The notes beneath the pieces were generated by a model, which worked only from the letters and a program-made list of their open reading frames with translations, made no database searches and had not been told where the DNA came from. From UHGV virus genome UHGV-0110462: a stretch of 60,029 bases of DNA, one strand, 5' to 3'. This document shows, one piece after another, positions 5,339 to 57,696 of the stretch. Source of the stretch: a virus. The position numbers and the translations under genes are program-made. The number at the start of each line of letters is the position of its first letter. Position 1 is the stretch's first letter.

Positions 5339-5508
5339 ATGTACGAGGACATTTTAGAGTACCTGGACAAACGTCTCAAGGAAAATACTCGCGATATCGG
5401 ATCCGCGATCACTTCCAGGGATGTTGATGATATCCACAGATATGAGGGCAGAGAGCAGATGATTCTTGAAATCAAGCGGTTTATAAGGAAAAAGCAAGGG
5501 GAGAAATG
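5339..5508 (+). CDS. small hypothetical protein (56 aa)
   Basis: AAAGGAG RBS 7 nt upstream of the ATG. Followed by a hairpin terminator GGGGAGAAATGATCTCCCC. Below the 60-aa cutoff of the ORF track. Confidence 0.35.
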
Positions 5509-5523
5509 ATCTCCCCTCTTTGA

Positions 5524-5775
5524 TTATTTGCAGAAATTATTCAGCAATTCTTCTTTTAACTCCATCTTCCCGGCTCTAAAACCGAGCTTGAAAGCGTAGA
5601 TCAGTGCTTTTGTCTTCCCCATCTCCACTTTGTCGGCAATCGTAACCAATGGCAGCAGGTCTTCCGCAAAGTAATCTGTAACCACACTGTCGCTGATCGG
5701 GCGAATTTTCTCTTCGATATTATTCAGCGTGCTTCTCATATCGCTGACTTTTACTTTAAGCTTCCTTACTACCAT
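5524..5775 (-). CDS. hypothetical protein
   Basis: ORF translationally coupled downstream of the ORF6N gene. Confidence 0.4.
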   Translation of the reverse strand: MVVRKLKVKVSDMRSTLNNIEEKIRPISDSVVTDYFAEDLLPLVTIADKVEMGKTKALIYAFKLGFRAGKMELKEELLNNFCK

Positions 5776-31482: not shown

Positions 31483-31809
31483 TTATGCTTCTCCTCCGAT
31501 CAAATCAGCCATCATTAAGATGATATCGTCTGTAGTTGCTTCTAATGTATCGATACGTTCTGTATCCGTCATAACCTCATTCTCATAGTTAAGGTACTTA
31601 CCTGGGTTAGCTTTTACATCGTCCAAATCGAGAGTGCCGGTAGGCTCTGAGATTTCCCTGTAATCATATTCATGATAGGTCTGCTCCTCTTCCTGTCCTT
31701 CAGGAATCTCTGTCACGATGTTCTCATTCAGACAGATATAGACATAATCCGTTCCATTAATCTGCCTAACAGTAACACTCTCTTGTGCAGTGTCGAATCT
31801 TGCTTTCAT
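31483..31809 (-). CDS. hypothetical acidic phage protein
   Basis: ORF downstream of the RT; acidic composition, so unlike Avd. Confidence 0.4.
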   Translation of the reverse strand: MKARFDTAQESVTVRQINGTDYVYICLNENIVTEIPEGQEEEQTYHEYDYREISEPTGTLDLDDVKANPGKYLNYENEVMTDTERIDTLEATTDDIILMMADLIGGEA

Positions 31810-33046
31810 GTGATATCACTTCCTTACATATTTGAATCGTTTTGTTTGCGTTGTATCTTCTTTTTATATTGTAGCTGTCCGTGTGGTCTAAGATGCCTTT
31901 GTATGACATGCACTTCCTTGCAAGCCATACTGGAATCTTCTGCCTCTGCTTTACAATAGATTGTGCTTTCTTGTACGACCGCCTCACTCTTAAGAAAACT
32001 CTTCTTCTAATTGTGATATGCTGTCTGTATATGCGGACACCCATAATATCAATAAAATGACCATCATCTTTGCGTTTTGCGGCCGTTGTATATACCGTCC
32101 AACTGTCTTTGATTTCCAATCCCTTTTCGTCCGCTTTCTGAATAATCAGCCTCATAGCCTTGTGAATGTCTTTTGCATTCGTGCCGAGAATCAAAATATC
32201 ATCCATAAAGAAAAGCTGATGTTTCACAAGATTAATTCTTTCTGTTGTTCCATTTCTTTTCTTTCTGATGCGATACATATTCTCCGCTATTTCATGGTAG
32301 ATTTGAGATAAAAATAAATTGCAAAGATACTGGCTTAAATACGAACCAATACTCAGTCCAGTGTCGAATGTCATGATTAACATTTCTATCAACTCAAGTA
32401 GTGGTTCATTCTTAATGTATTTCCGTAGAAATTCCATTAACTTGTTTCTATCAATCGATGGATAACATTTACTGACGTCACATTGACCAGCGTATCTGAT
32501 ATTTTTATTTCTCATCCATCGTTTTATTGCTTTGATACCGCAGGATTGACCTCTGCCTTTCAGTGCTGCACATTGGTATTCTCCAATTCGCTTTAAGACG
32601 TCTTTCATAGCTTCTACTGCGATATAATCGTAGATTTGCTGTTTAATGTTCTGAATTCCGATTCTTCGCACTTTCTGACTGGAAGCATCAATCTTTTCTT
32701 TGTACCATATTGGTTGAAAGTGAATATTGCCTTGGATGATTTCTTCACGTACTCCGTCAACCACTGTTTCAACCATCGGTTTCATTCCGTTTAATCCGAA
32801 CTCATTGAACATTCCTTTAATAGTGTCTGTCGAAAGTCCAGTGTATTCAGAAAACATTGTCAATGAATCTCTTCTTTTGTATTTCTTTTTAAGGCATTTG
32901 TATACTGCCTTTTGAATCAATTTTCTATCTGTTATATCGACCGTTTTGCAATACGTCTTCATCGATTGTCTTTTTAAGGGCGTTCGGTTTGTACTACTAA
33001 CCCCGACAGATAGGCGAACCCTATCCGTCCTTACTCCTTTCGTCAA
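31766..33046 (-). CDS. diversity-generating retroelement reverse transcriptase
   Basis: RT motifs 3, 4 (IGxxxSQ) and 5 present; full motif strings are given in the DGR finding (31766-35083). TTG start in the track; an internal ATG at 32962 is possible. Confidence 0.85.
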   Translation of the reverse strand: MTKGVRTDRVRLSVGVSSTNRTPLKRQSMKTYCKTVDITDRKLIQKAVYKCLKKKYKRRDSLTMFSEYTGLSTDTIKGMFNEFGLNGMKPMVETVVDGVREEIIQGNIHFQPIWYKEKIDASSQKVRRIGIQNIKQQIYDYIAVEAMKDVLKRIGEYQCAALKGRGQSCGIKAIKRWMRNKNIRYAGQCDVSKCYPSIDRNKLMEFLRKYIKNEPLLELIEMLIMTFDTGLSIGSYLSQYLCNLFLSQIYHEIAENMYRIRKKRNGTTERINLVKHQLFFMDDILILGTNAKDIHKAMRLIIQKADEKGLEIKDSWTVYTTAAKRKDDGHFIDIMGVRIYRQHITIRRRVFLRVRRSYKKAQSIVKQRQKIPVWLARKCMSYKGILDHTDSYNIKRRYNANKTIQICKEVISHESKIRHCTRECYC

Positions 33047-33171
33047 AAAATAAAAGTTTCAGTAGGTCTATAAAAAGTATTTCGGGCATCTGCCCAAGAG
33101 TCTTTGCAGACTACACTCTTTGCAAGTGCGAAATACGACGCAAGGATTTTATATTTAGAAATTAACAATTT

Positions 33172-33277
33172 CAGCCGAGGTAATTCCAGTTCGTCCTGTC
33201 AAGCCTGTTCCTGCAATTCACGTACACTGAGCCAGCATTCGACCCATTCCTGAGATTACCGCGTGCGCCGTAAGTCC
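33172..33277 (-). repeat. DGR template repeat (TR)
   Basis: Intergenic 106-bp copy of the target gene 3' end. Carries A at all but one of the mismatch positions (7 AAT/AAC codons). Confidence 0.8.
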
Positions 33278-33349
33278 TTATATTTTAGTCGGTCGTATTA
33301 GGGGAGAACCCCTCTTTCCTAGAGGAAATTCACCCCCGGCGACCTCTTC

Positions 33350-35083
33350 TTAATCGCAGCCGAGGGCATTCCAGGACGTCCCGCCAAGCCCGCCCCTGCA
33401 ATACACGTACACCGAGCCAGCAGCCGACCCACCCCAGAGACAACCGCGTCCAAGGTCTTCTCGAGTTCCAGATGTACTCTTACCGCCAGCGTAACATCTA
33501 TCACCCCAACCTTGAGAGTCGCTCTTTCCGATGGCTTTAGCGAACCATGAACAAGTTTCCATATCCACTCCGATATCACCAACCCACCAGTCATTTCCAT
33601 CGTTGCTAGGCATATTCCCAATCAGTTTATATGTGCTCTTGATTGTTGCTTCATCCTTTACGTGCTTCACGCCTCTAGGAGCAATATACATGTCCTTACT
33701 GTAATCTTCCTTAAATACCATGACCGAATCTGAATATACGATATATCCACCTACTGAACTTTCAATTCCCATGACACGGAATGGATGTTTACCATCTGTG
33801 TTCGAACTCATTGAACCATCGTGTTTTCCAATAACCTTATCGGTCGAACCGCTCCACCAATGCATAGTTGACAGCATAATCTGTGCATTCAGAGTATCAC
33901 TCAATGCTACTGGTGTTGTTGCGAATCCACCTTCGATATCCAAGTACACAGCCTTGTTATTTTCATCGAGCGTTTCAATTCTAAGGACTTTCACATCATT
34001 AGCGTATCTGTGGATTGTTCCACCTCCACGGTCGTTATTAACCGTATTATCAGTATTTTTTGAGCCATAACCTACAGAAACGTAAGAGCCGACAAGAATC
34101 TTCGAAGCCTGCGCATTCGTAAGAGGAAAGTAGATTTCTTTTGTATCTCGCTGAATGGATGCCGGAAACTGATAGTTGTAATCAGTTGTGCCTTTGAAGA
34201 TTTTCTGTTCATTCTTCGTAGCATACTTAATCACTTCGTACAGAATGACATACATATTTCTTTCTTTTCCAGCGCCCCAACAGCCTTTTCCTTTTCTCTG
34301 ATAATTGTCAATCATGTTGTTGTAACATTGATTTCTAGCTGGTTTAGAACCGCTGAATGACCTAAGAAGTCCATCCGTGCCAAGTCCACTGACATACTTG
34401 CTATGAATCACATAGGAAGCGTAAGTTCCATCTTCTTTTCTAGCCGTTTCCCACGGAATTAATCCGTAATTATCATTCGGAGTGTCGGATAATGTCCAAA
34501 CCTGTTTGCCATCTTTCTCAATAGCCGACCAGTACGGAGTCATTGCAATAACACCAACGTCAACAGATCCATCATTCTTATAACCATTTCCCCATCCCTC
34601 GATTGCTGTAGGAACTTTGCGTCCGTAATCATCTGTCACGTAGTTGCAGTTAAACCAGTTAAAAATTCCAATACCCTCATAGTCATCTCTGCCCTCTACG
34701 GTGTCTGTTGATGGTTCACATACCATGTTCGCATTAGCAAGAGTCTTAACACCGTCAGAGGTTGGGTTTGTTTCTGTCAGATACATTTCTGTCTGATATA
34801 CTTTTCCATTTCTCATTGACCCGAAGAATGCCTCAAGGATTCTCTCATCAATGGTATCTGTTACATGCTTTACATTCACCATCTCTTCCTTTAGTTTATC
34901 CACATTCTCTTCCAGCACTGTATAATCCTCTGGGATGCTCTCAAGTGTCTTATTTCCTTTGGCTTCAATCTGTTTGATTAATTCTTCTGTACTCTCTTCT
35001 GCTATGGCATTCATTACTCCGGTATAACTTGTTCCGCCTTCATTTTTTACTCTTAGTTTAGATTTCTTTATGAATACACTCAT
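33350..35083 (-). CDS. DGR target: tail fibre / receptor-binding protein with diversified C-terminus
   Basis: 577 aa, C-terminus ...GRGCLWGGSAAGSVYVYCRGGLGGTSWNALGCD encoded by the VR. Sits in the tail module. Confidence 0.7.
   Translation of the reverse strand: MSVFIKKSKLRVKNEGGTSYTGVMNAIAEESTEELIKQIEAKGNKTLESIPEDYTVLEENVDKLKEEMVNVKHVTDTIDERILEAFFGSMRNGKVYQTEMYLTETNPTSDGVKTLANANMVCEPSTDTVEGRDDYEGIGIFNWFNCNYVTDDYGRKVPTAIEGWGNGYKNDGSVDVGVIAMTPYWSAIEKDGKQVWTLSDTPNDNYGLIPWETARKEDGTYASYVIHSKYVSGLGTDGLLRSFSGSKPARNQCYNNMIDNYQRKGKGCWGAGKERNMYVILYEVIKYATKNEQKIFKGTTDYNYQFPASIQRDTKEIYFPLTNAQASKILVGSYVSVGYGSKNTDNTVNNDRGGGTIHRYANDVKVLRIETLDENNKAVYLDIEGGFATTPVALSDTLNAQIMLSTMHWWSGSTDKVIGKHDGSMSSNTDGKHPFRVMGIESSVGGYIVYSDSVMVFKEDYSKDMYIAPRGVKHVKDEATIKSTYKLIGNMPSNDGNDWWVGDIGVDMETCSWFAKAIGKSDSQGWGDRCYAGGKSTSGTREDLGRGCLWGGSAAGSVYVYCRGGLGGTSWNALGCD
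33357..33460 (-). repeat. DGR variable repeat (VR) at the 3' end of the target gene
   Basis: Hand alignment to the TR shows 18 mismatches, 17 at TR adenines; per-codon list in the DGR finding. 3' end CTCGGCTG is identical to the TR. Confidence 0.8.
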
Positions 35084-35133: not shown

Positions 35134-36660
35134 TTAGTTGATACTCTGTAAAGACTTTAAGAATCCACTAATACATTCAGCTATTCTTTTGCCCCCAACA
35201 GATGTAGGATGAAAAAATGTATCATTTTCATTTTTAACAAATGAGGAAATATTATTTTCGTTCCATCCAACTAAACTATTCAAATCAACGCAAGGAACAT
35301 GATTGTTTCCGCAAGCATTTAAAGTAGCTCTTGCGAAATCTCTGGTTGTATTTCCGTTAGAATTTTTCAATCCATCAGCACTACCCTTTTTATTAAAAAA
35401 GGCTTCACCATTACTGTTTTTGACTGGCGTTTGTGTCATAAAAACAATTCTTTTTGTTGGATATTTAACTAATAATTTTTTTATAAGTGTATTTAAACCG
35501 CCATAGAACGTTCCAGTAAAAGTCTGCGCATCAGTGTTAATATCCGCTTCCGTTCCGACCGTTCTATCTTGTGCCCAATCATTTGTTCCCCCCATAACAA
35601 GCATAACATCAAAGTCTTCCGTGATTTCGGCAAGACATTCATCTGTAGCCATTGCCATCAAACGTCTTCCTCCAACACCATGATTATAATATTTTGAAAA
35701 TCCCAATTCTCGTTGTACGTAATCTTGCCATGTCTGTTGAGCGGTAATGCTATCTCCATAGGTGCATAATATTTTACCAAAATAAGGTTTTTCTAAATCA
35801 GATTTTAAAATTTTAATTTTTGTTCCACCAACAGAAAAATCAATATTTGAGATATCTTTGTCTGTTACATCATAAATATAAATATCAACCGTATATGATG
35901 CATTCTCAGTAGTTGAATATATAGAAAATCCTCTAATATCTGATTGCGCAGTATATGGCATTACTGATGTTTCAGACTTTCCAACTCCAAGACCTTGTAT
36001 TTTTCCTATTGATCCCTGAAACGCATATGAAAAAGCATTGGCATATGCTGTTATATTGGCGCTACTACCATTTTTGAATTTCATTACAACAATATATTTT
36101 TTACCATTTTCAAACAGAGATGTATTTATAAAGGCTTTGTATTGTCCCTTCGTAGCATTTATTGATGTTATTGTATTACCATTTAAAGTTATATTGCTTG
36201 ATGTACCCTCCGAAGTAAATGTCAATGTATTTATTTTATCTTTAAATACAATATAATCAATATCTTCTAAATCTTCCTTGAGAGAATTAAATTCCCCCAT
36301 ATCCGGCACTTCTACCTCATCATCTTCATCTGAAATCCATACATTATTGTTCGGGTCTGTTGGCTGTTCTTTCTGACGGACAACAAGATTCTCCCTTAGT
36401 TTTCTTACCTGTCCTCTCATGGCGTCTCCGATGTTTTTATGGACTTCTCCATCTACATCCGTTCTTCCATCTGTAAGTTCTTCATTTAGTGAACTGATTT
36501 TTTCTTTGTTTTTTGTAATCTGCGCCAACTCTTCTTCCGAAATTCCTCCTAAATCCCCATCAGACGGAGCAGGAGGAATCAGGGTTTTCTTTTCGATTTC
36601 ACCCGTGTCTTTGTTCTTTACATTTAAAAATGCAGCTTTTCCAATATCACTCGTTGCCAT
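35134..36660 (-). CDS. tail-associated SGNH/GDSL hydrolase (esterase) domain protein
   Basis: C-terminal SGNH blocks ILCTYGDSITAQQTW...GGRRLM...VMGGTNDW. N-terminal beta-rich domain. Confidence 0.65.
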   Translation of the reverse strand: MATSDIGKAAFLNVKNKDTGEIEKKTLIPPAPSDGDLGGISEEELAQITKNKEKISSLNEELTDGRTDVDGEVHKNIGDAMRGQVRKLRENLVVRQKEQPTDPNNNVWISDEDDEVEVPDMGEFNSLKEDLEDIDYIVFKDKINTLTFTSEGTSSNITLNGNTITSINATKGQYKAFINTSLFENGKKYIVVMKFKNGSSANITAYANAFSYAFQGSIGKIQGLGVGKSETSVMPYTAQSDIRGFSIYSTTENASYTVDIYIYDVTDKDISNIDFSVGGTKIKILKSDLEKPYFGKILCTYGDSITAQQTWQDYVQRELGFSKYYNHGVGGRRLMAMATDECLAEITEDFDVMLVMGGTNDWAQDRTVGTEADINTDAQTFTGTFYGGLNTLIKKLLVKYPTKRIVFMTQTPVKNSNGEAFFNKKGSADGLKNSNGNTTRDFARATLNACGNNHVPCVDLNSLVGWNENNISSFVKNENDTFFHPTSVGGKRIAECISGFLKSLQSIN

Positions 36661-57057: not shown

Positions 57058-57129
57058 ACAAGCGTAACTGGAATCGAACCAGTACATCAGAAGTCAAAGT
57101 CCTGTGCTCTACCTTTAAGCTATACGCCC
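57058..57129 (-). tRNA. tRNA-Gln(UUG)-like
   Basis: Hand-folded. D-arm GCTT/GAGC. Anticodon arm CAGGA-CTTTGAC-TTCTG, anticodon UUG. T-arm ACTGG-TTCGATT-CCAGT. Acceptor needs two G-U pairs at positions 1-2. Confidence 0.55.
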
Positions 57130-57288
57130 TTAGCTGCAAGAAATTTACCTCGAAAGCCGTAAGGAATCCTTGCACTGCTACGGTTCTTTATAATATTGGA
57201 GTTTATTATATGATCGATAAACCACGTCTTTTATTAACAAAACGTTAGTTTCCGAGCTTCAGCGAACTCCGCAGCTAAAACACTGAAT

Positions 57289-57348
57289 TGCCGTGGTCGG
57301 ATTCGAACCGACACATTTCACACGTTCTACCAATTGAACTACACGGCA
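57289..57348 (-). tRNA. truncated tRNA-like element (acceptor, D-arm and T-arm present; anticodon arm missing)
   Basis: GCCGTGT-A-GTTCAATTGGTAGAAC-GTGTGAAATGT-GTCGGTTCGAATCCGAC-CACGGCA. Only 11 nt lie between the D- and T-arms. Confidence 0.45.
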
Positions 57349-57406
57349 AACCGAAAGGAAAAAATCTTATGAAAGGATGACTCTCCAAGTTCACCACGCT
57401 TGGAGA

Positions 57407-57480
57407 AGCTACCGCCCGGATTCGAACCGGGACCCTGCTGATTCGTAATCAACTGCTCTATCCATTTGAGCTATGATAGC
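57407..57480 (-). tRNA. tRNA-Arg(ACG)
   Basis: Hand-folded. D-arm GCTC-AAATGGATA-GAGC. Anticodon loop TTACGAA. T-arm CCCGG-TTCGAAT-CCGGG. No encoded CCA. Confidence 0.6.
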
Positions 57481-57613
57481 ATTTCACGGTTTTTGAAATC
57501 TTTTAATCACTTTAAACTTATGGGAATCAAAACTAATCTAAAGGAAAATGGCATATTTACTGCACATAGGGCGCGTACATGATGGGTGTTTCTGAGAACC
57601 GTGAAACTCAGAA

Positions 57614-57696
57614 CGCCGCATGGAGGATTCGAACCTCCAAGTCGTTTCCGACCGAATGCCTAGCAAGCATCTCCAATGCCTTTATGGGAATGCGGC
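57614..57696 (-). tRNA. tRNA-Ser(GCU), type II with long variable arm
   Basis: Acceptor GCCGCAT/ATGCGGC. Anticodon arm GATGC-TTGCTAG-GCATT. Variable hairpin GTCGGAAACGAC. T-arm GGAGG-TTCGAAT-CCTCC. Confidence 0.6.

Follow-up and report, generated by a model that had tools for sequence, protein, structure and literature searches.

The viral genome UHGV-0110462, a stretch of 60,029 nucleotides (nt) that we refer to as the window, almost certainly carries, within its tail module, a complete, minimal diversity-generating retroelement (DGR); the phage itself is probably a temperate one whose hosts are gut Firmicutes (Eubacteriales or Lachnospiraceae-like). The layout of the element is target gene with variable region (VR), template region (TR), and reverse transcriptase (RT) gene, without an accessory gene. 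Three features, all on the minus strand and spanning about 3.3 kb from target gene through RT, make up the cassette: an open reading frame (ORF) of 577 amino acids (aa) at 33350-35083, an intergenic stretch, and the RT ORF at 31766-33046. The DGR is real; the family to which it belongs is very probably functional, and the window copy probably is as well.

A repeat search of the window found a single significant direct repeat, 98 nt long (33167-33264 and 33352-33449), ungapped, 80% identical, and offset by 185 nt. This agrees with the initial annotation, made from the DNA alone, that one copy is intergenic (the TR) and the other lies inside the target ORF (the VR). The copies were right but their length was not: homology extends over 93 to 98 nt rather than about 105 bp, and the earlier 5′ limits of 33277 and 33460 overshoot by about 12 nt because the two copies are unrelated past 33264 and 33449. 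The TR (33172-33264) contains 24 adenines, whereas the VR (33357-33449), whose 93 nt form codons 545 to 575 of the target, is depleted of them (n = 7). Base-by-base tabulation over 33172-33264 exactly reproduced the count that had been made by hand: 18 mismatches, 17 of them at a TR adenine and one at a TR thymine (33182). Since adenine makes up 24 of the 93 TR bases, such a bias is very unlikely to arise by chance (hypergeometric P = 3.3e-12). Over the full 98 nt, two extra A-to-C/G differences at 33170-33171 bring the tally to 19 of 20 mismatches at TR adenines (P about 1e-12). All codon changes listed in the initial annotation check out, as do the seven AAY (AAT/AAC) codons of the TR in the VR frame; its reading of the TR end as ...LGC was mistaken, because the TR frame ends ...NYLG followed by a stop (TGA where the VR has TGC). 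When both strands of the window were scanned with the TR, treating A as N, no second VR-like copy was detected; this is the search for additional remote VRs that the initial annotation had proposed.

The RT gene occupies 31766-32962 and encodes 398 aa from the ATG at 32962, although the ORF is open upstream to 33046. Every RT homolog begins MK(T/R)YCK at the position of this ATG, and the "codons" of 32963-33046 change among relatives by compensatory substitutions in RNA helices. Because homologs start there and the upstream segment is constrained as RNA helices rather than as codons, translation probably starts at 32962. As the initial annotation reported, the protein carries the RT motifs QCDVSKCYPSID, GLSIGSYLSQYLCNLFLSQ, and QLFFMDDILILG, including the signature IGSYLSQ and the catalytic FMDD; it matches Pfam RVT_1 (7e-15) and PHROG 1423 (phrog_1423, "reverse transcriptase"; 3e-57). 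The signature [I/V/L]GxxxSQ sets DGR RTs apart from those of group II introns and retroviruses, in which the motif reads QGxxxSP; the first residue of the DGR signature (I181 in the Bordetella RT, bRT) promotes adenine mutagenesis (PMC7826257). Both IGS[YC]LSQ and [FY]xDD are kept in all 115 full-length RT homologs that we retrieved; the window RT has its catalytic aspartates and the DGR motif, not the group II intron motif. The best solved relative in a PDB search was chain 8ub7_A (E = 9e-8). We identified this chain as Bordetella bRT because it is 328 aa long and has D138 and Y213-M-D-D216 at the active-site positions given for bRT in the literature, aligned with CDVSK and FMDD of the window RT; the catalytic aspartates of the latter align with bRT D138, D215, and D216. 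The window RT is 70 aa longer than bRT, and their similarity is local. Among the weaker relatives in deposited genomes are the RTs of Faecalibacterium phage FP_Epona, Butyrivibrio phage Arawn, Bacteroides phages, and archaeal virus ANMV-1.

Were the RT that of another retroelement (group II intron, retron, or defense system), the 98-nt repeat could be an ordinary diverged duplication of a gene 3′ end, and the best NCBIfam match to the RT is indeed a group II intron RT/maturase, followed by faint matches to Drt3a and Drt5. All of these fall far below their cutoffs (51 bits versus a 300-bit cutoff for the maturase), the signature motif is IGxxxSQ rather than QGxxxSP, and Rfam finds no intron or retron RNA across the cassette, either at gathering thresholds or at E values up to 10. 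The target also has the fold of solved DGR variable proteins (see below). It is the adenine bias that refutes the non-DGR explanation, recurring as it does in about 60 independent cassettes, and we regard the probability of that explanation as negligible. Of the conditions that the initial annotation had named as capable of refuting a DGR, those addressed here (mismatch tabulation, RT motifs, target fold, and VRs of relatives) all came out in favor of one.

The target (33350-35083) is a putative receptor-binding or tail-fiber-like protein, whose last ∼300 aa form a conserved module ending in the VR. Its only PHROG match is PHROG 17147, which has no known function, and searches against Pfam (E up to 10) and NCBIfam, as well as against the PDB with a profile built from close relatives, returned nothing useful. 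A search with the last 300 aa retrieved 488 representative proteins, in which the module is nearly always C-terminal and which are 300 to 1,400 aa long; a deep profile of the module then reached TaqVP of Thermus aquaticus (PDB 5VF4), a bacterial, nonphage variable protein, though with marginal sequence similarity (E = 0.09). Structure prediction depended on alignment depth: the full-length target, modeled from a shallow alignment of 30 sequences (≥75% identical), gave a predicted local distance difference test (pLDDT) score of 29, while the C-terminal 300 aa, modeled with 125 diverse representatives as the alignment, gave a pLDDT of 96.1 and a predicted template modeling (pTM) score of 0.90. 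In its predicted fold, the C terminus agrees with TaqVP and Mtd, two DGR variable proteins of solved structure whose fold is described as C-type lectin (PMC6328139); a fold of this class was what the initial annotation had anticipated. The VR is thus C-terminal within a coding target, on a predicted scaffold of C-type-lectin type. According to the model, the target is a modular phage fiber with a DGR variable-protein fold at its tip and, in contrast to TaqVP, its module ends a modular tail-fiber protein with relatives of up to about 1,400 aa. Gene position and fold are the grounds for the label "tail fiber", and a receptor-binding role would fit with both.

Support for activity of the family comes from relatives. 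Among 75 IMG/VR loci with RTs 46 to 97% identical to that of the window, about 60 have a TR just upstream of the RT and a partner VR, which typically shows 13 to 23 mismatches, all or nearly all at TR adenines. The VR peptides all differ, on a common scaffold (GG.L..GS.AG...V.C...L.....W..LGCD). We defined a close set of 31 cassettes, the window plus 30 whose TR is ≥93% identical to the window TR, and found that it contains 10 distinct TRs and 27 distinct VRs. VR entropy in this set is 1.56 bits at the 24 TR-adenine positions versus 0.195 bits elsewhere, while TR entropy is about 0.1 bits (TR conservation, 93 to 100%). All 24 positions vary, the VR base opposite a TR adenine being G (213), T (208), A (186), or C (113). 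That 27 VRs occur among 31 cassettes with nearly identical TRs shows that the family diversifies. Between near-identical relatives, VR differences are confined to A-templated positions, the pattern that the initial annotation had proposed looking for. In two loci (L001 and L038), the TR is 100% identical to that of the window, and the VRs differ at many A positions. Such sequences bear the population signature that mutagenic homing would leave, seen here across related contigs from different samples rather than within one.

The TR itself also stands out from its surroundings. When the cassette was compared with deposited phage DNA by megablast, only the TR matched: 33180-33260 is 90% identical over 81 nt to positions 100201-100281 of MT835469.1, an unrelated 176-kb phage whose flanking genes encode proteins with only about 50% identity. 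By this comparison, the TR is far more conserved than its surroundings.

Some relatives depart from the common pattern. Six loci (L030 and L033-L037) share one identical VR (about 5508-5616) that has a 9-nt insertion (three codons, "ADW") relative to their TR; the TR-VR alignment breaks at the insertion, the offset being 194 instead of 184 to 185. This VR may no longer be fully rewritable, or the six loci may be one phage sampled repeatedly. Another locus (L106:1268-3321) is a DGR deletion derivative. Its target homolog ends in an A-poor, VR-like stretch (7 A in 100 nt), past which come ∼10 nt from the start of the element that normally lies behind the VR (AGGTCGTCC; see below), joined directly to the final ∼40 nt of the RT gene and the acidic ORF (see below); its TR and most of its RT are gone, leaving a "frozen" VR.

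TR and VR end in the same way, as the initial annotation noted: CTCGGCTG occurs in both copies (33172-33179 and 33357-33364). The longer CCTCGGCTG is also common to TR and VR, so that the two share a G+C-rich, identical 3′ end of the kind expected for initiation of mutagenic homing (IMH, with IMH* as its TR counterpart). The IMH-like VR 3′ end occupies 33350-33366 (−) and consists of the G+C-rich CCCTCGGCTGCG followed by ATTAA. Right after CTCGGCTG, the VR has CG (33355-33356) in every relative, while the TR has AA, AG, TA, or AT; the two adenines of the window TR copy at 33170-33171 are never copied into the VR; they lie inside the hairpin at the TR end (see below). Because CG in the VR is fixed whatever the TR has, this position marks the 3′ limit of information transfer.

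The TR is embedded in a conserved RNA architecture. At the 5′ limit of homology lies UACGGCGCA (33264-33272, −), whose complement, UGCGUCGUA (33134-33142, −), is found about 30 nt downstream of the TR; the latter is followed by UUUC and the first spacer hairpin. This TR-bracketing duplex occurs in four complementary versions at fixed positions, those of the relatives being GGUAGAGCA/UGCUCUAUC, UACACUAC/GUAGUGUA, and UGUGUUAC/GUAACACA. Between the TR and the duplex 3′ strand, the minimum free energy fold contains a hairpin (GAAAUU-GUU-AAUUUC; 33158-33172, −) that starts at the last base common to TR and VR. A hairpin is found at this site in each clade, with a sequence that differs by clade, and by analogy it is a candidate self-priming (template:primer) duplex. 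The spacer between TR and RT (32978-33129, −) contains five hairpins: HP1 (33113-33129), HP2 (33099-33112), HP3 (33083-33096), HP4 (33005-33029), and HP5 (32978-33004). Their 30 pairs are 89.5% paired across relatives, with 137 doubly changed cells compared to 48.5 ± 6.6 in shuffled and 11 to 36 in slid controls. Frequent G-U pairs argue that the sense-strand RNA folds, rather than DNA or antisense RNA. HP3 (UGGGCAGAUGCCCG, −), which is followed by a conserved AAAUACUUUUUAUAGACC, was flagged as terminator-like and was the only informative result of a promoter/terminator scan. Its role may be to give the DGR RNA a discrete 3′ end ahead of the RT coding region or, alternatively, to dampen RT expression by attenuation.

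In outline, this arrangement is the same as that of the prototype DGR, from Bordetella phage BPP-1 (mtd-avd-TR-brt), with which the window also shares an IGxxxSQ and YMDD-type RT (bRT being its best solved relative), AAY codons in the TR, a G+C-rich common 3′ end, and adenine-only TR-to-VR differences, apart from the one non-A mismatch in the window. In the BPP-1 structure determined by cryo-electron microscopy, the spacer pairs with the TR 3′ end to form a template:primer duplex (TR:Sp) and also with sequence upstream of the TR (avd:Sp) to form the "cPRT stop," which is followed by a stem-loop. The window TR is likewise flanked by an upstream:downstream RNA duplex and then a structured spacer; by analogy, its priming and stop functions could be similar. 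The survey of such RNA elements in the BPP-1 structure paper covers Avd-containing DGRs only.

A second conserved structure follows the VR. This post-VR element (33283-33355, −; 73 nt) consists of three helices, each with covariation: P1 (33340-33344/33291-33295; GGTCG/CGACC), P2 (33324-33328/33315-33319; TTTCC/GGAAA), and P3 (33309-33312/33301-33304; GGGG/CCCC). An invariant GGGTGAAT (33328-33335; also written GGGUGAAU) lies between P1 and P2. A covariance model (R1) that we built from 16 sequences of the element has a single match at each locus, in every case immediately behind the VR stop codon; the matches come from 44 sources, among them a Butyricicoccus metagenome-assembled genome (MAG). 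In Rfam, the element has no match. On the model-fitted alignment, which leans toward the structure, 97.3% of cells are paired, with 60 doubly changed compared to 13.5 ± 2.9 in shuffled and 7 to 17 in slid controls. Within P2, pairing reaches 100%, and four of the pairs covary. Of the two hairpins that the initial annotation placed downstream of the VR, structure in the region stands, while the second hairpin (AGAGG/CCTCT) does not: it lacks covariation support, and P1 and P2 explain the region. We also rejected the idea that, in cassettes where VR and TR are split, P1 is a long-range pairing with sequence upstream of the TR, because the ACGGTC segment there aligns with GGACT of compact cassettes rather than with the 3′ strand of P1. 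In cassettes with genes between VR and TR, the post-VR element remains with the VR, which makes it a candidate target-site determinant.

The evidence above is consistent with the following course of events. A sense transcript across the TR and the ∼210-nt spacer would fold so that 33264-33272, upstream of the TR, pairs with 33134-33142 downstream of it, and the spacer hairpins would bind the RT. The RT would then copy the TR into cDNA, starting at the TR 3′ hairpin (33158-33172) and stopping at the bracketing duplex, with misincorporation opposite TR adenines during synthesis. Guided by the common G+C-rich 3′ end, and probably also by the structured element just past the stop codon, the cDNA would replace the VR. 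Up to 24 A-templated positions in 18 codons would thereby be randomized on the ligand-binding face of the C-type-lectin-fold tip, and host-receptor specificity could be altered as the outcome.

Avd is a basic protein of about 110 to 130 aa that forms a four-helix bundle and is encoded adjacent to the TR. In the window, only 85 nt separate the VR stop codon from the TR start, so no gene fits between them. The initial annotation was correct that no Avd-like ORF lies between target and TR, but calling this layout unusual was not justified: of 372 cataloged DGRs, 74% have avd and 26% lack it, accessory-free Architecture A (core TR-RT) accounts for 29%, and avd-less RTs form Lineage 3 (Wu 2018, PMC5758913). 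Given that 26% of cataloged DGRs lack avd, its absence is no bar to DGR membership. The window element consists of the TR-RT core with no avd, HRDC, MSL, or CH1 gene, a conserved acidic ORF (see below) being a possible exception, and is a new member of this already cataloged accessory-free class. It resembles Architecture A1 (target-TR-RT)/Lineage 3 in this core, in its Firmicutes, gut, and phage setting, and in having a C-type-lectin-class target with a C-terminal VR (Wu 2018, PMC5758913); the likeness to Lineage 3 is thus one of gene layout, setting, and target. What the present analysis adds is a map of the RNA architecture and a noncanonical post-VR element; the RNA architecture of avd-less elements is described neither by Wu (2018, PMC5758913) nor in the BPP-1 structure paper.

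A DGR that depends on an Avd encoded elsewhere (outside the window, in the host, or as a divergent small ORF such as 31483-31809) would look much the same, given that the window spans only 60 kb and that all of the relatives examined share a conserved small ORF overlapping the RT end. We consider such a hidden helper quite improbable. Among 65 small ORFs of the window, no 23S_rRNA_IVP/Avd-type family was found in the best 25 of 98 Pfam families (to E = 3.2e-4) or in NCBIfam (to about E = 1e-3), so any match of a single ORF would be weaker than these values. Avd was likewise not seen in the cassettes of relatives whose ORFs were listed, and neither the RT N terminus nor the small ORF has an Avd-like PDB match. 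A profile search of whole genomes with avd-less DGRs also found no distant avd, and Avd proteins have an average isoelectric point (pI) of 9.5 (Wu 2018, PMC5758913), whereas the conserved small ORF is acidic (pI 4.1). Finally, in a sister clade the gene at the position of BPP-1 avd is not a four-helix-bundle gene but an RNase H gene.

The acidic ORF (31483-31809, −) encodes 108 aa and overlaps the RT 3′ end by 44 nt. It has no match in Pfam, PHROG, NCBIfam, or the PDB, and no detectable relation to the acidic CH1 accessory of Bacteroides, which is longer (160 to 169 aa; Wu 2018). Downstream of the RT, the ORF is conserved in every relative examined, the distant large-phage clade included; within the phage collection, its single occurrence (one deposited phage) is next to an RT homolog. 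Two loci that have the ORF without an RT (L090 and L106) keep RT 3′ remnants; they are therefore deletion derivatives and carry no independent information on its role. In eleven unrelated phage contigs (L107-L117), similarity to the ORF is confined to the C-terminal ∼23 residues (ATTDDIILMMADLIGG). We conclude that the acidic ORF is not Avd; it may have a role in the DGR or may simply be syntenic.

The sister clade consists of uncultured gut phages of 130 to 177 kb (for example, MT835469.1; L047-L058), whose RTs are 47 to 50% identical to that of the window. It shares with the window the target module, the TR core (90% nucleotide identity), the post-VR element, the spacer RNA, and the downstream acidic ORF. 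In contrast to the window, where no RNase H homolog was found, it has an RNase H gene (PF00075), sometimes together with a second gene, between VR and TR. The RNase H protein is 150 to 169 aa (PF00075, 6e-12 to 1e-12) and is encoded in at least 17 loci (L048:5150-5659, L047:4068-4520, and at least 15 more among L049-L058, L062, L065, L070, and L072-L074). In DGR RTs themselves, no RNase H domains were found by Wu (2018, PMC5758913), and we found no publication describing RNase H as a DGR accessory.

Several points weigh against an active, Avd-independent DGR that works as proposed. The candidate priming hairpin is weak (−1.5 kcal/mol) and local (3-nt loop), and lies 13 to 25 nt from the stop duplex compared to 2 nt in BPP-1, which makes the analogy loose. 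The canonical hairpin/cruciform of phage DGRs has a 7- to 10-bp G+C stem and a 4-nt GRNA loop and lies 4 to 34 bp from the VR (Guo 2011); that of BPP-1 has an 8-bp G+C stem and a GAAA loop. The window and its relatives have instead a conserved, covarying structure 5 to 65 nt after the stop, with three helices and the invariant GGGTGAAT, in which P3 is a 4- to 5-bp G+C stem with a UUCU, AUCG, or CUCU loop and P2 is A+U-rich. Avd proteins are poorly conserved, and there may be a divergent or host-encoded helper that a 60-kb window does not reveal. The lone non-adenine mismatch (T to G at 33182/33367) departs from strict adenine specificity and, with a single static VR sequence in the window, no within-population variation is visible.

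The last two points would also fit a window copy that is a frozen relic, with an RT or RNA that no longer supports homing and VR differences that are historical; so would the decay seen in relatives, namely, the A-poor VR of L106, which has lost its TR and most of its RT, and the identical VR with a 9-nt insertion shared by L030 and L033-L037. We think this improbable, since the window RT ORF is intact, with its catalytic residues and signature motif, and every RNA helix (spacer, duplex, and post-VR) is intact as well. In addition, L001 and L038 have exactly the window TR but VRs that depart from the window VR at many A positions, which implies recent turnover in this sublineage. A window copy that is still capable of homing remains the explanation that we favor.

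The window (38.6% G+C) encodes an integrase, repressors, replication genes, a terminase-to-tail module, and a lysin, and its gene content is that of a temperate-phage-like genome. For "prophage," the term used in the initial annotation, no marks of integration were found: a search between the integrase end and the tRNA cluster gave no attachment-site repeat longer than 12 nt, and the window showed no clear host flanks. The target gene follows the tape-measure gene, tail genes, and a GDSL "tail fiber" gene, and precedes the RT gene, a holin-like region, and a GH25 lysin. Immediately upstream of the target, a gene at 35134-36660 (−) encodes a 508-aa protein (PHROG, "tail fiber protein") whose C terminus is a GDSL/SGNH esterase domain (Pfam, 6e-14), which suggests that a deacetylase-type, receptor-modifying fiber may accompany the diversified one. 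A tRNA cluster (57059-57696, −) lies just beyond the terminase gene; ARAGORN predicts tRNAs for Gln, Arg, and Ser, and a fourth tRNA-like match (57288-57348; 52 bits) was found by Rfam only, without an ARAGORN call. The cluster may be phage encoded or may mark a host junction. As for the host, a scan of a genome collection yielded only two relatives, an Eubacteriales MAG and a Butyricicoccus MAG; the closest genome matches are the Eubacteriales MAG for the RT (85%) and a Mediterraneibacter faecis protein for the target (85%).

DGRs that diversify tail fibers of gut phages are well documented and accessory-free cassettes have been cataloged before, so the element itself is expected biology and raises no new question. 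It is useful instead as a clean and very compact representative of avd-less DGRs, a class with an unstudied mechanism; BPP-1, the sole mechanistic and structural model, needs Avd for catalysis. A more far-reaching scenario, which we put forward tentatively and consider rather doubtful as a whole, is that a widespread gut-phage lineage carries out mutagenic retrohoming without any Avd-like protein, that an RT and a self-organizing RNA (local priming hairpin, TR-bracketing stop duplex, and five spacer hairpins) do the work divided in BPP-1 between bRT-Avd and RNA, that the post-VR element with GGGTGAAT is a new target-site determinant replacing the G+C hairpin, and that the sister clade has recruited an RNase H accessory. 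The bracketing duplex, the boundary hairpin, and the conserved post-VR element provide concrete, mutable predictions for how an RT could work without Avd. Directed-evolution tools based on DGRs now carry Avd, and for these a TR-RT system of just two parts, with a target signal that is portable, would also hold appeal.

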